IMG/VR virus record: IMGVR_UViG_3300028591_000005
Location: 64,001 to 128,000 of that record
Reading direction: 5' to 3' (one strand)
Length of the DNA stretch: 64,000 nucleotides
DNA from: a virus
Lineage: Duplodnaviria > Caudoviricetes
The notes under the pieces are model-generated. The model saw nothing but the letters and a program-made list of their open reading frames with translations. It searched no databases and was not told the DNA's origin. The position numbers and the translations under genes were made by a program. Numbering within the stretch: position 1 is the first letter of the stretch; each line of letters opens with the position of its first letter. Below, piece after piece: positions 2,845-61,123 of this stretch.

Positions 2845-3063
2845 TTATATGTTCCTTCCCTGGTTTATTCCAGTTATTATACATAATATAAGCCAAATAC
2901 CTGTAGAATATTTCCAAGAAAACTCCCAATTAAAGCATAGAGTTATAAGTTTTATAATACCACAAGTAGTTATCCAACTAAAAGCAAGAAATACAATCAT
3001 AGCAAGGATAAAAACAAGTCCATATATCCAAGCACTTTTTCCATTTTTTCTAATTTCACCCAT
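2845..3063 (-). CDS. Small two-TM membrane protein
   Basis: Two hydrophobic segments. Confidence 0.55.
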   Translation of the reverse strand: MGEIRKNGKSAWIYGLVFILAMIVFLAFSWITTCGIIKLITLCFNWEFSWKYSTGIWLILCIITGINQGRNI

Positions 3064-3068
3064 AATTT

Positions 3069-3308
3069 TTACCCTATAAAATCTTTTAACTCCTGCTCTC
3101 CAAAGTTATTATATTTAATCTTTTTAATAGCGACTCTAGATGCGCTTCCAATATTAATTTTCTTTTCAACAGAAGCATTAATATATTTGAAAAAGGCAAG
3201 AATAAAGAATTTATAATCATAATAAAATTCTCTGCCAAGTATTCCATTTACAACTACACTGTACTTAGGATTTTTACACATTCTCTCTATCGCCCATTCG
3301 TCTCTCAT
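3069..3308 (-). CDS. Hypothetical protein
   Basis: Operon context. Confidence 0.55.
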   Translation of the reverse strand: MRDEWAIERMCKNPKYSVVVNGILGREFYYDYKFFILAFFKYINASVEKKINIGSASRVAIKKIKYNNFGEQELKDFIG

Positions 3309-3894
3309 TTTTATTCACCCCTTCTTTTAAGCTATGTTCTGTTTGATAATCTATTGTTAATCTATGATAATTTTCTACTTTTGCTAACATTCCAGTTTCA
3401 ATTAATCTACCTAAATTTGCGGGGTAGTATTTTACAACATTTGCTGCAAAATTTATATGTGTCACTTTATTACATCTTTCAGTTAAATGAAAATTAGGTC
3501 CTCCATGTTGATGTCCATGAAGATTTATACAAAAATCTTCAAGTCCAAATATTGGTTCATGACTTAAAAGAATCCTATCTGCAATAAAAAGTGGACCATT
3601 ATATATTTCATCAAAATGAGATGCAACTTTACTTAATACATCATGATTACCAGTAATAAGTACTTTGTAGCATTTAAGCTCATCAAGATATTCTGCATTA
3701 CCCACGTCACCTAAATGAATAAGAGTATCTCCTTTATGAACGAAACTTTTAATAAGTTCCATATGCTCCTGTGGAGATATCCACTCAGGATCCATGAGTT
3801 TACAATCAGAATCGTCAAAATGAGTATCTGATACAATCCACACAGAACCTGTTGCAGACCATCTTTGAAATTGTGGGTAAAGTGTTCTTATCAT
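3274..3894 (-). CDS. Calcineurin-like metallophosphoesterase
   Basis: SDTHF, LGDVG, GNHD, SHEP and HGHQH motifs. Confidence 0.88.
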   Translation of the reverse strand: MIRTLYPQFQRWSATGSVWIVSDTHFDDSDCKLMDPEWISPQEHMELIKSFVHKGDTLIHLGDVGNAEYLDELKCYKVLITGNHDVLSKVASHFDEIYNGPLFIADRILLSHEPIFGLEDFCINLHGHQHGGPNFHLTERCNKVTHINFAANVVKYYPANLGRLIETGMLAKVENYHRLTIDYQTEHSLKEGVNKNERRMGDRENV

Positions 3895-35600: not shown

Positions 35601-36161
35601 CTAAACCGGTTGACTATTATAATATTTTTTAATTTCATTAATAATATCATCTATTAACCAAAGATGCATATTATTTGTATCTAATTCGACATGAAATATT
35701 ATTCCTTTATCCATATCACAAAATTTATTTTTATCATGTCGATGTCCACATAAATTAATTATTTTTGCTTTTAGAGGTTTATCGTCATCATAATTACTTG
35801 TTAAACAAGGATAATGAGATAAATAAAAATGATATTGATTATATTGAAAAAATTGACCTTCAGTTATTTCAACTATATTATAACAAGTATTATATAAATT
35901 CATACGGACGTCGCTATCATGATTTCCTCTAACTACATGAATATTTCCTTTAAGCTGTTTAATAAGACGAATACCTTCTTCATTATTGTTAAGCATTAAA
36001 TCTCCAAGACAATAAACATGGTCATCAGGTTCAACAACAGAATTCCAATTATAGAGAATTGCATTATTCATTTCATAAACAGAATTAAATCCACGAGGTT
36101 CATATATAAATGGTTTATTATGGAATAAATGGAGGTCGCTCGTAATCCATATATCAGACAT
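35601..36161 (-). CDS. Metallophosphoesterase
   Basis: SDLHLFH, LGDL, GNHD, SHYP and GHRH motifs. Confidence 0.88.
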   Translation of the reverse strand: MSDIWITSDLHLFHNKPFIYEPRGFNSVYEMNNAILYNWNSVVEPDDHVYCLGDLMLNNNEEGIRLIKQLKGNIHVVRGNHDSDVRMNLYNTCYNIVEITEGQFFQYNQYHFYLSHYPCLTSNYDDDKPLKAKIINLCGHRHDKNKFCDMDKGIIFHVELDTNNMHLWLIDDIINEIKKYYNSQPV

Positions 36162-36678
36162 TATTATTCTCCTTAATTACAATTTCACCATTTGAATATA
36201 TTACAATAATTTTATCAAAACCCTCATCAAAACTGGGATTTCTAAAATGTTCATACATATTTTCAATTACATCACGAGGAACGTATGAACGAGTATTTTT
36301 TCTTTTTTCATTCTGACGAATACAGGTATCTACTCCATTGCGGAGAACAACAGCAATAACTTCACAATCTTTCAAACTATCCCCTAATTTGCGGAGAAGC
36401 TTGGTACGAGATCCTGAATTGATATGCGTAGCATCAGCAATGGTGGCTTCCGCATTTTTTAATCCATCTTTTATTTCATCAATAAATTTATTAAATACTT
36501 CAGTTTCATGCGAGAAGTATTCTTCATCTTCTTTTACTATTGAGAAACGAATATCATCTCTAGATACATATTTCACATCGTCGCCGAACATAGTAAGATG
36601 ATTCTTGCAGAACGTGCTTTTGCCTGTTCCTGGCACTCCACAAATAACGTACAGTTTATTCTTCATAGATATCAACAC
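36154..36678 (-). CDS. AAA_33 polynucleotide-kinase-like P-loop protein
   Basis: CGVPGTGKST, SRDDIR, DATH and RQNEKR..VP. Confidence 0.8.
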   Translation of the reverse strand: MLISMKNKLYVICGVPGTGKSTFCKNHLTMFGDDVKYVSRDDIRFSIVKEDEEYFSHETEVFNKFIDEIKDGLKNAEATIADATHINSGSRTKLLRKLGDSLKDCEVIAVVLRNGVDTCIRQNEKRKNTRSYVPRDVIENMYEHFRNPSFDEGFDKIIVIYSNGEIVIKENNNV

Positions 36679-38319: not shown

Positions 38320-39567
38320 TCATCCATGATACTTGATAAGGAATTCATTAGACACAGCCTTGAAGCTCTGAACTCCGTCTACAGATCTGAATACAAGACC
38401 TTCTCTCATACCACCATCTATAGCAGACTTATCAGTTGCTATCTCAAGAAGCTCTTCAACAGTATCGGGAAGTATGAAATGCTCATCTACTATTGGTACG
38501 CAAGGAACATCATATTGCACCATAAGGTCAGTCATCTCTCTAGGATTCAGTCTCTTTCTTCTACCATCCTTGTATCCAACAATTACATTGAATACAGCGA
38601 GGTCATGCTCCTTAAGAGAATAATCTCTCTTCTGAACACCTTCACCATAAGTCTCGCCCTGAACAGTAACAAAATCAATATTTCCTTCGGTATTCTCGAA
38701 GTACTCCATAAGCATTGAAAGTACATCTTCCATATGATATTTTTCTGCCATTTCAACATATACATTAGTATCATAATAGCACTGCTTGTCAGGTCTATCA
38801 AATACAACATTTCTTGAGCAAACGAAGAACTGTCTCTTTCTTCCCCAACCTCTCATAGTGAAAGTAGTTGAAGTTCCATCTATCTTTTCAGTTGCAAACC
38901 ACTCGGATTTGTCCTTGAGGATTTGAGGCATATTCTGGACTCTTTCCTCGTCAGTCTTTACAACCCATGAAGGCCAGGTTTTAACATCTTTCTTCTTGCC
39001 AAACAGAAGAAGGAATATCTTTCTTGCCCACTTATGTTTCTTTATAAATCTACCAAACTTTCTTGCTATCCAGGGATGTCTAGTAAATGCAGCATTTATT
39101 CTAGCATCAGGATTGGGCTTACCCTTTCTCTTCTGATCTTCAGGCTCATAATAAGTTACACTAAGTTGCTGAGTAAGGAAAGCAGATTCAGTTCCAGGGC
39201 GATATTGATGACCTTCCTTATCATATATGTAATTAAACTCATCAGTATAAGCAACAAACCAACCAAAATCTGCGGCAGGCATAAGAAGCCCCTGAGACCA
39301 GAACTGTCCGTCAGGAGTCTTAAACTTCTGAGTCTTGATATGTCCCTTATATTTCTTACAAAATTCAAATATAGGGTTATCAAGCGGAACCTGGCTATCT
39401 ATTTCAAAATATATTCCAGGGTCGCCTGCCTTAAATGCGCCCTTTGGAACCATACAAGTCCATCCACCAACCCTTGCACATTCAACTCTATCCTTACCTG
39501 CTATAGGCTCTACTGAATCAACAGTAACGACATAAGCAAGTTCTCTTATTCCATCCTTATTAAGCAT
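38320..39567 (-). CDS. ATP-dependent RNA ligase (DRB0094/Rnl family) with N-terminal OB-fold
   Basis: EKIDGTS (motif I), CSRN, QGETYG, REGLV and SFKAVS; N-terminus RELAYVV..IAGKDRVE..V.GW..V.KG.F..G...YFEIDS. Confidence 0.85.
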   Translation of the reverse strand: MLNKDGIRELAYVVTVDSVEPIAGKDRVECARVGGWTCMVPKGAFKAGDPGIYFEIDSQVPLDNPIFEFCKKYKGHIKTQKFKTPDGQFWSQGLLMPAADFGWFVAYTDEFNYIYDKEGHQYRPGTESAFLTQQLSVTYYEPEDQKRKGKPNPDARINAAFTRHPWIARKFGRFIKKHKWARKIFLLLFGKKKDVKTWPSWVVKTDEERVQNMPQILKDKSEWFATEKIDGTSTTFTMRGWGRKRQFFVCSRNVVFDRPDKQCYYDTNVYVEMAEKYHMEDVLSMLMEYFENTEGNIDFVTVQGETYGEGVQKRDYSLKEHDLAVFNVIVGYKDGRRKRLNPREMTDLMVQYDVPCVPIVDEHFILPDTVEELLEIATDKSAIDGGMREGLVFRSVDGVQSFKAVSNEFLIKYHG

Positions 39568-58975: not shown

Positions 58976-59254
58976 ATATTGGTTTTTATCCACATATGCC
59001 TGGAACCATAACCAAACATATATGAGGTTAAAGACTTTACCAAGCTTTATTCACTCTCATTCGTATATTTTAGCGACGTCTTTAATTCAGGTTCTCGTCC
59101 ATAGCAGTGAGGAGCTATAATACTCAACAATCTCTGCCTTACGCCCTTCTTCGTCATAGGGTGACCTATGGGATTCTCGTTCTCATAGCAACGCCTGCTC
59201 CAAAGAGCAGGAAAACGACTACTGCGGGGATCGAACCCGCGACCTCGGCAGTGA

Positions 59255-60102
59255 ATGCTCGAAACAAGTTACGACCTTATATTTTAGACCATTCTTCTTC
59301 AGAATATTTATTAATTTCTGTTTTTTTACGAGGTAATCCGAATTTATCACACCATTTTCGGATAGCATTATCAGAAACTCCATATTTAGTTCCAATTGTT
59401 GTAAATGGAACAGTTCTGATAAGATTTTTTAATTCTTCTCTTGTAATAGGCATTTTATCTTCAGGAATAATTCTATTTTTAGCAGAACATTCTGCACATC
59501 TTGTTGATGTTCTAAAAATTTCTTTTCCACAATCTATACAATAAAATTTTTTTGCAAAAATTTTTCTTTGTGGATTCCTACTACCTGTTGTTTCTAATTG
59601 TTGATTACAATTAGGACATACCCATCTTAAATTTTCTAATCTGTCATCATTATTAATACCATTGATATGGTCAAGTATAAGAGTCAATTCTTTACCTTGC
59701 CATATTGGCTCTTGTCCACAGATAGAACATTTATATTCAGAGCAAGAATTTTTTATATATAATTTTCGTAAAGTATGTTGACTTGCTGTAGAATCTTGTA
59801 TAAAAGTATTCTCCGGAGTCCTAATTACTCCTGTTCTAATACTCTTTTGAAAATGAGAAGTATCATAATTACTTAATTTTTCTTCTAACATTTTAAGAGT
59901 ATCTCCAGATGGAGAATTACTATATCCAATTTTTCTAGCAAAATCTTTAAAAGAAACAGAAATTTTTACAATATTTTCTATTTCTGAAGATGAATAATTT
60001 TCAAAATATCCCATAAAGACTCCTTTCTTATAAGATATATGAAAATAAGTTCAACTTCTTGAACTCGACTCGTCCAAAGTTTTACATTTAAACTATTCGA
60101 AC
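59255..60102 (-). mobile_element. tRNA-shaped intron carrying an HNH endonuclease gene
   Basis: GTTCGAA/TTCGAGC stem, D-arm TA-GTTT-AAATGTA-AAAC, TTTGGAC/GTCTAAA stem enclosing the ORF, T-arm ATAAG-GTCGTAA-CTTGT. Confidence 0.8.
59277..60014 (-). CDS. HNH homing endonuclease (intron-encoded)
   Basis: CSICG..LILDHINGINNDDRLENLRWVCPNC, second zinc finger CIDC..CAEC, C-terminal HTH (YGVSDNAIRKW). Confidence 0.9.
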   Translation of the reverse strand: MGYFENYSSSEIENIVKISVSFKDFARKIGYSNSPSGDTLKMLEEKLSNYDTSHFQKSIRTGVIRTPENTFIQDSTASQHTLRKLYIKNSCSEYKCSICGQEPIWQGKELTLILDHINGINNDDRLENLRWVCPNCNQQLETTGSRNPQRKIFAKKFYCIDCGKEIFRTSTRCAECSAKNRIIPEDKMPITREELKNLIRTVPFTTIGTKYGVSDNAIRKWCDKFGLPRKKTEINKYSEEEWSKI

Positions 60103-60247
60103 CAGTGCCGTATTCTAACCAAACTGAACTAAGTAGCCAAAACAATAGCAATACCGAGTAAGATGTCAAATCTCCTTTTTATAGTGATTGGATCCACTTG
60201 TGTTCTTACTATATCGGCTTTATTCTCTTCTAAATTGCTATTGTAAA

Positions 60248-60319
60248 ATGGAATGACAGGACTCGAACCTATGCATAGCGATTTTTCCATCGCCGCTCTA
60301 CCAACTGAGCTACATTCCG
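60248..60319 (-). ncRNA. tRNA-like gene with aberrant 6-nt anticodon loop (GGAAAA) and C1:A72
   Basis: Canonical D-arm AGCTCAGTTGGTAGAGC and T-arm; anticodon arm GCGAT-GGAAAA-ATCGC. Confidence 0.65.
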
Positions 60320-60810
60320 TAATCGGTTTAACGCTCTGTACGATTCCCCTATTTAACTTCGGGACAGCTCCACATCTGTTATTTAAACTCTCTAGTGGGG
60401 AGAGTATAGTTCATGAACCGGTTGAACTTGGGTCGCACGAGGTGTCAACCAAACCCCGCCGTTTGCAAACTAGTGATTATTTTTTTAGTTCATCACCACC
60501 GAACACTTCTCACATAGCGAAGTAAATGGATAAGGATTTCATCGCCTTATACAGATATTGGTATGTTCTTTCTCGTAAAACTCCAACATCAAAACCGACC
60601 TGTTTTTTTTAAAATCTTATTGGATAACAGGTAACCTCACCGATACAGTCGTCGCTCACGAGACCTCGTTATACATAGCATCGGAGCAAGGGTTCTCACC
60701 TGCATTTTCTGCCAAGACAGAGGTTTGTATCTTAACCTATCCGGTGCCTAACGAGCGCGGAGCCTCATCTCCGCCTGTCATATCCTGTCAATTCAGGCAT
60801 TACTTCGGTT
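60320..60810 (-). ncRNA. Candidate large structured ncRNA with an embedded tRNA-like domain (60677-60748)
   Basis: About 490 nt, GC-enriched, no minus-strand ORF of 60 aa or more, many stems; flanked by tRNA genes. Confidence 0.5.
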
Positions 60811-60814
60811 GAAA

Positions 60815-60945
60815 CGGGAATCCGAGGACTCGAACCTCGATACTACGCTTAATGGATAAATGAGTACTGCCCTCAAATCCTTGACAGTGTTTTCTTTAAA
60901 CTATTATCCCACAGGCGTATGTCCTAACCTTTGGACGAGAAACCC
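60815..60945 (-). tRNA. tRNA-Asn(GUU) split by a 59-nt tRNA-shaped intron (60852-60910)
   Basis: TACGC-CTGT[insert]TAA-GCGTA; G73; the acceptor stem has two U:U mismatches. Confidence 0.8.
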
Positions 60946-61094
60946 AAATCACGGGAGCCCATCCCCGCATTCTCACACAGAGCATTCTCTGGTCGGGCAT
61001 ATTGAAAGGGAGGTGTGATTTATATACAAAAGAAAGGGAAAACCTTAAAGGATAATGTAGGAACATTTCATATCCCTTTCTTTATTGTAAATAT

Positions 61095-61123
61095 ATTATA
61101 ACAAAAATTTTTTTAAAAGTCAA
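61095..61123 (-). promoter_or_regulatory. Sigma-A promoter driving the Asn/Asp tRNA-ncRNA operon
   Basis: TTGACT-17-TATAAT with extended TG. Confidence 0.85.

Follow-up and report, generated by a model that had tools for sequence, protein, structure and literature searches.

A 59-nt tRNA-shaped insert in the tRNA-Asn(GUU) gene of a 146-kb phage: a probable stripped-down member of a mobile intron family

The closest described counterparts of the element reported here are the introns in tRNA genes of Lak megaphages, which Devoto et al. (2019, PMC6784885) called "enigmatic", noting that one of them "itself may encode a tRNA". A 2026 survey of jumbo phages makes the same remark on tRNA introns (PMC13037316). 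Neither publication (PMC6784885, PMC13037316) provides an architecture, a junction rule, a mechanism or a link to a homing endonuclease, and our literature search found no paper giving an architecture, a junction rule or a mechanism for such introns. The insert considered here resembles the Lak introns in belonging to a family that shows presence/absence polymorphism between related phages and in being unclassified by Rfam. The Lak-type introns differ in that they reside in phages of more than 200 kb, mostly with recoded stop codons, whereas this insert is 59 nt long, lacks an anticodon arm and CCA, and is found in a 146-kb phage.

To our knowledge, no tRNA introns other than self-splicing ones are known from bacteria and their viruses. 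The mobile group I introns that carry HNH or GIY-YIG genes share with the present family the site in the anticodon loop, the endonuclease ORF in the larger relatives, a patchy distribution and the existence of ORF-less derivatives. Unlike a group I intron, the insert has no recognizable core and no Rfam match even to E 10, ends in U rather than G, and has ends that pair as an acceptor stem; its 59 nt are far below the length of any self-splicing group I intron that we know of, and this class was rejected. The group II class was also rejected, since there is no Rfam match, the length is again 59 nt, and the ORF of the relatives specifies an HNH endonuclease and not a reverse transcriptase. No small ribozyme in Rfam matches the insert.

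The protein-spliced tRNA introns of archaea and eukaryotes (EndA/Sen for cutting; RtcB or Trl1 for sealing) are likewise short and placed in the anticodon loop, and they are removed by the kind of cut-and-ligate process that is proposed below. Unlike these, the phage insert has its junctions at the ends of a 7-bp helix, and no tRNA_int_endo (PF01974) match or RtcB is encoded in the genome; a bulge-helix-bulge was rejected because inspection shows nothing ahead of the 3′ junction with which the exon bases preceding the 5′ junction could pair. In MALAT1 mascRNA, in mitochondrial tRNA punctuation and in YrlA-type Y RNAs a tRNA-shaped module recruits the tRNA end-processing enzymes. The flanks in those systems are not known to be rejoined, whereas here they are tRNA halves, useful only if ligated. 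The T4 Pnkp/Rnl1 repair system offers a precedent for an ATP-dependent phage ligase sealing a nick in the anticodon loop, as is proposed here, and a kinase and a phosphoesterase are also encoded by the present phage. In T4 the nick represents damage by a host anticodon nuclease, whereas here it would be a step of programmed processing. The ligase of this phage has an N-terminal OB-fold domain and need not be of the Rnl1 type.

The window, that is, the whole stretch of 64,000 nt that was analyzed, corresponds to bases 64001-128000 of a complete phage genome of 145,977 bp, which possesses direct terminal repeats and a G+C content of approximately 32%. Protein matches point to large Firmicute phages of the Enterococcus Schiekvirus type as its probable kin, and the host of the phage appears to be bacterial. 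The minus strand carries a tRNA array between 45.5 and 61 kb. Within it the tRNA-Asn(GUU) gene at 60815-60945 (-) is the only tRNA-Asn called in the genome by ARAGORN with introns allowed; default ARAGORN and Rfam overlook it. Three more tRNA genes of the window are interrupted, namely tRNA-Asp (848 nt), tRNA-Leu(UAA) (45 nt) and a tRNA-like gene (45 nt). The candidate promoter upstream of tRNA-Asn matches the consensus hexamers at 11 of 12 positions, with a 17-nt spacer and a TG extension. Between this promoter and the gene, and abutting the first base of the latter, a hairpin rich in G+C precedes an interrupted run of U (60950-60969, -); it represents either a leader structure or a site resembling a terminator. 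The coordinates of the principal features are collected in Table 1.

Table 1. Features of the interrupted tRNA-Asn gene, its sister insert and the candidate processing enzymes (positions in the window)
Feature	Position	Strand	Basis or remark
Candidate sigma-70-type promoter, near-consensus	61095..61123	-	About 150 nt upstream of tRNA-Asn; consensus match only
tRNA-Asn 5′ exon, positions 1-35, ending C32 U33 G34 U35	60911..60945	-	ARAGORN -i; comparison with L115
Whole tRNA-shaped insert (intron), 59 nt	60852..60910	-	ARAGORN -i; base-by-base segmentation
Acceptor-like helix, 5′ strand; first base = 5′ junction	60904..60910	-	6/7 pairs with 60853-60859; G1 opposite A72
U8-A9 and D-like arm (4-bp stem, 5-nt loop)	60889..60903	-	4/4 pairs from position 10
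Linker, 12 nt, in place of anticodon arm and variable loop	60877..60888	-	Without conserved stem
T-like arm, 5-position stem (4 pairs + U.U), 7-nt loop	60860..60876	-	Abuts helix 3′ strand
Helix 3′ strand (60853-60859) and single discriminator U (60852)	60852..60859	-	3′ junction after U
tRNA-Asn 3′ exon, U36 A37 A38 to discriminator G73	60815..60851	-	ARAGORN -i; allele comparison
Sister insert, 848-nt tRNA-shaped intron in tRNA-Asp(GUC)	59255..60102	-	HNH endonuclease gene 59277-60014 inside
ATP-dependent RNA ligase, candidate exon sealer	38320..39567	-	Pfam RNA_ligase E 2.5e-20; PHA02142 OB-fold domain
Metallophosphoesterase (35601-36161)	35601..36678 (with kinase)	-	Pfam Metallophos_2
P-loop kinase (36154-36678)	35601..36678 (with phosphoesterase)	-	Pfam AAA_33, KTI12

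The tRNA-Asn(GUU) gene with its 59-nt insert had been recognized in a sequence-only reading, all of whose coordinates and segments are present in the sequence; ARAGORN with introns permitted makes the same call, and the joined exons read CUGU|UAA. An uninterrupted tRNA-Asn on a metagenome contig (L115) is letter-identical to the exons of the window gene in the D arm, the anticodon arm and the variable loop, and a second intronless homologue is found at L013. The sequence-only reading placed the insertion between positions 35 and 36. The DNA alone fits 34/35 equally well, because a U flanks both junctions and makes the two sites inseparable by sequence; the choice of 35/36 is the one picked by the family rule described below, according to which the 5′ junction is helix +1.

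The insert can be read base by base as an acceptor stem, a D arm, a T arm and a discriminator, as had been proposed; the stub anticodon arm that formed part of the same proposal is instead an unpaired linker of 12 nt. It carries G53:C61, C56 and A57, together with U8. Upon shuffling of the insert 300,000 times, three stems in the tRNA registers arose at a frequency of 4e-4, and none of the 300,000 shuffles gave the three stems plus U8, G53:C61, C56 and a purine at 57. In the thermodynamic ensemble the acceptor-like helix has a pairing probability of approximately 0.8. The minimum-energy fold replaces the T arm by a competing hairpin between the linker and the T loop (pair probability 0.65 versus 0.22; -10.2 versus -7.8 kcal/mol), a hairpin that is absent from the relatives. 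The Rfam tRNA model does not call the insert alone; all that it yields is a weak, chimeric hit of 21.4 bits spanning 60815-60910. A covariance model (R1), for which four inserts from other lineages served as the basis, matches the insert over its full length from 60910 with 18.8 bits, a modest cross-check given that the match has an E value of 0.19 over the whole window and ranks behind two real tRNAs. A functional tRNA gene nested in the host gene was considered and rejected, as the insert has the linker where an anticodon stem-loop would be and is not called by the Rfam tRNA model on its own.

The larger sister insert in tRNA-Asp(GUC) provides the link to a family. Its HNH gene translates with the standard code, and more than 5,000 homologues of the protein were found, on phage contigs from gut metagenomes that reach approximately 190 kb. 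Ninety-seven loci around HNH homologue genes were fetched; wherever the context in these loci could be resolved by ARAGORN or the descriptor, the HNH gene lies inside a tRNA gene, and many short ORF-less inserts occur in the same tRNA arrays as the HNH-bearing ones. The resulting set comprised 28 inserts, 23 of them non-redundant, whose layout was counted from the insert ends. A helix of seven positions begins with the first base of the insert and is followed by two bases and a 4-bp stem from position 10; on the 3′ side a 5-bp stem with a 7-nt loop abuts the 3′ strand of the helix, after which comes a tail of 1, 2 or 4 bases. Some relatives have only a 7-nt linker or a stub hairpin in the middle, others an HNH gene of approximately 750 nt. 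The tRNA-Asp insert has a 7/7 helix, the same D arm as the Asn insert, a 5-bp T arm and a 2-nt tail, and the helix is also 7/7 in the members of the family other than the ORF-less Asn inserts.

Because of the unequal lengths of the middles a MAFFT alignment misplaced the 5′ ends, and covariation was therefore scored at set positions measured from either end of the insert. Canonical pairs account for 352 of 368 (95.7%) in the fixed registers of the 23 inserts, compared with 62% (sd 1.8%, maximum 68%) when the partners are permuted, and each of the acceptor positions 2-7 displays four to six pair types. The helix formed part of the selection criterion; the D and T arms did not, and hence represent a fair test. 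The D pairs are formed at register in 89 of 92 cases among the 23 relatives, and the T pairs in 106 of 115 at register 0, a number that falls to 34-66 upon shifting. All 23 inserts have G53:C61, C56 and a purine at 57, which are universal features of real tRNAs, and 22/23 have U8. Even from the poor MAFFT alignment RNAalifold independently recovered the T arm.

Inserts at the same site of tRNA-Asn genes are found in four of these loci. Those of L060, L002 and L021 are ORF-less and have the same G1.A72 and the same single-U tail, while L089 has a 735-nt ORF-bearing insert with a 7/7 helix and the tail UCCA; in all four the letters of the helix are entirely different from those of the window insert and the pairing is kept. 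The arms of the window insert are closest to those of an HNH-bearing tRNA-Gly insert (L094), and it is the smallest insert found that retains a D arm. The Asn and Asp inserts have in common the register, U8-A9, a D arm and a T arm that adjoins the helix, which bears out the proposal that the former represents the family of the latter in minimal form, without an ORF; its status as a minimal ORF-less member of the HNH intron family is well supported by these comparisons. The family itself consists of widespread, mobile and barely described phage inserts.

The sequence at the ends of the inserts follows a simple rule. In 28/28 the 5′ junction is helix +1, which is where RNase P would be expected to cut a tRNA. 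Removal from helix +1 through the tail yields the anticodon of the nearest intronless tRNA body in six cases in which the ARAGORN parse disagreed, and in four other intron-plus/minus allele pairs the extra stretch has precisely these limits. The base preceding the 5′ junction is U in 18/24 and +1 is G in 19/24. The length of the tail varies with the style of the phage's own tRNA genes. At ten loci, where 70-100% of these genes encode CCA, the tail of the insert is 4 nt and mostly NCCA; at nine, where 0-5% do so, it is 1-2 nt. There is no exception among the 19 loci (Fisher 1e-5), a value that overstates independence as the loci represent approximately two phage clades. A single Asp/HNH intron lineage bears either type of tail, according to the phage. 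A U follows the 3′ junction in 11/11 of the CCA-less group. The window insert conforms, with its single-U tail and with 0/18 scored tRNA genes of the window encoding CCA.

That the tail tracks CCA style lends indirect support to a reading based on RNase P and an RNase Z-type enzyme; the pattern is the one expected if the 3′ junction were made by the host's tRNA 3′-end trimming, and it favours such an origin. The sequence-only reading had proposed cuts at +1 of the tRNA mimic and after N73. This suits the Asn insert; the "after N73" part does not suit the relatives with 2-nt tails, including the Asp insert, in which the 3′ cut would have to fall behind N74. Endonucleolytic cleavage right after an encoded CCA has been described for Thermotoga maritima RNase Z (PMC1540738) and E. 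coli RNase E (PMC5291269).

The explanation towards which we lean, by a little more than an even division of belief, is that this is a real intron of a mobile tRNA-shaped family in stripped-down form, removed by RNase P, an RNase Z-type cut and ligation. In the precursor the insert would fold by itself into an acceptor/T minihelix with a D-arm elbow. Host RNase P would then cut at insert +1, the 5′ splice site, leaving exon 1 with a 3′-OH, and a host RNase Z-type 3′ endonuclease would cut after the discriminator U, the 3′ splice site, leaving exon 2 with a 5′-phosphate. The exon halves would be kept together by the arms of the host tRNA, as a tRNA nicked between U35 and U36, and the nick would be sealed by an ATP-dependent RNA ligase, most likely the phage's own (Table 1). 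RNase P and RNase Z leave 3′-OH and 5′-phosphate ends, which such a ligase can join directly, and a tRNA nicked in the anticodon loop is a classic substrate of phage RNA repair. We infer the excision, the cutting enzymes, the chemistry of the ends and the ligation from the sequence, and the part assigned to this ligase in splicing is likewise putative. The adjoining metallophosphoesterase and P-loop kinase are possible RNA end-healing enzymes, a role suggested by their domains. No RtcB, splicing endonuclease or RNase Z-like protein is encoded in the phage genome, so the cuts would fall to host enzymes. An RNA_ligase match is present in four of five intron-bearing phage records, two of them above the curated cut-off, in a count that has no intron-free control set; no such match was obtained for the complete intron-bearing phage from which L089 comes, and for two others the match is only weak. 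Further features counting against the RNase P/RNase Z/ligase model are G1 opposite A72, the U.U in the T stem, the two adjacent U.U mismatches in the host acceptor stem, the competing hairpin and the terminator-like hairpin upstream.

The insert may also be a truly spliced intron in which one or both cuts are made by a dedicated phage or host nuclease or by an RNA-catalyzed step, the tRNA shape serving for folding, stability, recognition by the homing machinery or, in the larger forms, release of the HNH message. The tail of 1, 2 or 4 nt at constant helix length is in accord with this, as a strict ruler enzyme would not produce it, and a kinase and a phosphoesterase together with a ligase make up a kit for 2′,3′-cyclic-phosphate/5′-OH ends and not for those left by RNase P and RNase Z; moreover, the tRNA genes of the same phages contain inserts that are not tRNA-shaped, for which some further route must exist. 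Such an account nevertheless leaves unexplained both the constancy of the 5′ junction at helix +1 and the match between tail and CCA style. It must also contend with the lack of any ribozyme or group I or II intron match in Rfam, with the lack of a splicing endonuclease or RtcB in the genome, and with the scant room that 59 nt offer for a catalytic core, and we consider it rather unlikely.

One critical question is whether the gene is functional at all. The sequence-only reading had pointed out two U:U mismatches in the host acceptor stem, and these are real, U4.U69 and U5.U68 being adjacent. An acceptor score of 5/7 or less (best-register count) occurs in only approximately 2% of the 864 intronless tRNAs in the data set, and the remaining 21 tRNAs called in the window score 7/7 (19) or 6/7 (two). 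Together with the G1.A72 and U.U defects in the insert's own stems, with a T loop that has drifted so that the competing hairpin is favoured, and with the inability of an ORF-less insert to move by itself, this might indicate that the insert stays in and that tRNA-Asn is a decaying pseudogene, killed by a degenerate, immobile remnant of the mobile element. It would also agree with the failure to find a close relative having the same insert: searches of phage records and IMG/VR for it returned chance or unrelated matches only, and no IMG/VR relatives were found by synteny via the neighbouring peptidase gene. Against decay stands the identity of the exons, over the D arm, anticodon arm and variable loop, with the intact L115 homologue, which is itself mismatched at 4:69, so that this tRNA lineage tolerates one such mismatch. 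This is, moreover, the genome's sole called tRNA-Asn, preceded by a strong predicted promoter; ORF-less inserts with G.A persist at the same site in three diverged phages with intact exons; and every stem and universal tRNA base of the insert is still present. A dead gene is on these grounds distinctly unlikely.

Another reading makes the excised tRNA-like RNA the selected product, a decoy or regulator directed at tRNA-targeting host defences or at tRNA enzymes, with the anticodon loop merely the site of delivery and repair of the host tRNA secondary. Relatives do end in a full NCCA, like a mature tRNA, and the universal tRNA bases are kept beyond the apparent need of a cleavage signal. The insertion sites across the family range from 34/35 to 36/37 of Asp, Asn, Glu, Gln and Lys tRNAs and so coincide with the sites at which known anticodon nucleases cut. 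Helix letters that vary freely and a middle that may be as short as 7 nt or as long as an HNH gene speak against a specific trans-acting RNA, and a selfish mobile element is in keeping with both the HNH gene and the polymorphism in presence and absence; we regard this reading as very improbable.

Returning to splicing by RNase P, an RNase Z-type enzyme and a ligase, our opinion is evenly balanced on whether the family constitutes a third kind of tRNA intron beside group I and bulge-helix-bulge introns, that is, a mobile element disguised as a tRNA, cut at RNase P and RNase Z-type sites and rejoined by a ligase. If true, bacteria would have a protein- and RNase P-dependent cut-and-ligate splicing assembled from housekeeping enzymes and a phage tRNA-repair ligase, and the "enigmatic" phage tRNA introns noted since 2019 would be explained. 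The 59-nt Asn insert would in that case show how little is needed, namely an acceptor/T minihelix, a D elbow and a discriminator. Since the suppressor tRNAs of stop-codon-recoded relatives (L007) carry such inserts, splicing that depends on a ligase might in addition set the time at which late genes are decoded, and the model would bear on how recoded phages control these tRNAs. A practical consequence would be the correction of tRNA annotation, as ARAGORN assigned the wrong anticodon to six such genes.

The suppressor gene in question (L007 15963-16107; also in L008 and L009) is a Gln-like tRNA with a 72-nt tRNA-shaped insert, the rule-based removal of which gives a CUA amber suppressor. ARAGORN reports it as Leu(CAA); the HNH gene of these phages needs TAG to be read as Gln, and no other CUA tRNA is found within the fetched 20-kb loci.

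Several tRNA genes contain inserts of other kinds. In the window, tRNA-Leu(UAA) (56544-56673, -) has a 45-nt insert that a hairpin of 5-7 bp closes and that lacks the tRNA shape, and the copy at L013 is uninterrupted. With it the phage has two different kinds of short insert. The tRNA-like gene at 56133-56249 (-), which adjoins a DUF2828/DUF7788/vWA gene (54481-55947), has a 45-nt insert with an ACAGCAA-type motif, and inserts sharing this motif also occur in tRNA-like genes at L001 8784-8909, L002 2436-2557 and L021 458-579. A weak Rfam match to YrlA (Y RNA-like) lies near the window element, which may be a Y-RNA/Ro-type module rather than an intron. Genes for PD-(D/E)XK proteins (PF11645) are borne by inserts of approximately 480-500 nt in tRNA genes at L002 1598-2175 and L015 9889-10446 and 11053-11610; their non-coding ends are too short for group I introns, and they show no clear fit to the tRNA-shaped rule.

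Homologues of the HNH gene are also found in Enterococcus phage PEf771 (MN241318.1; L114 2886-3720), within a 759-nt insert of tRNA-Lys(CUU) that is not tRNA-shaped, and, unannotated, in phage iF6 (MT909815.1; L113 ~2900-3760), inside a tRNA-like gene near a DUF2828 gene. Both are cultured Schiekvirus phages and could serve as laboratory systems for inserts in tRNA genes.

Two minor features of the array deserve mention. A weak Rfam tmRNA match at 59223-59270 (-) is only the 3′ exon of the interrupted tRNA-Asp, comprising the T arm and the acceptor strand. The tRNA at 60247-60320 (-) is Phe-like with an abnormal anticodon loop, for which ARAGORN gives a four-base anticodon, gaaa; it is without U33, and a C.A mismatch tops its acceptor stem.
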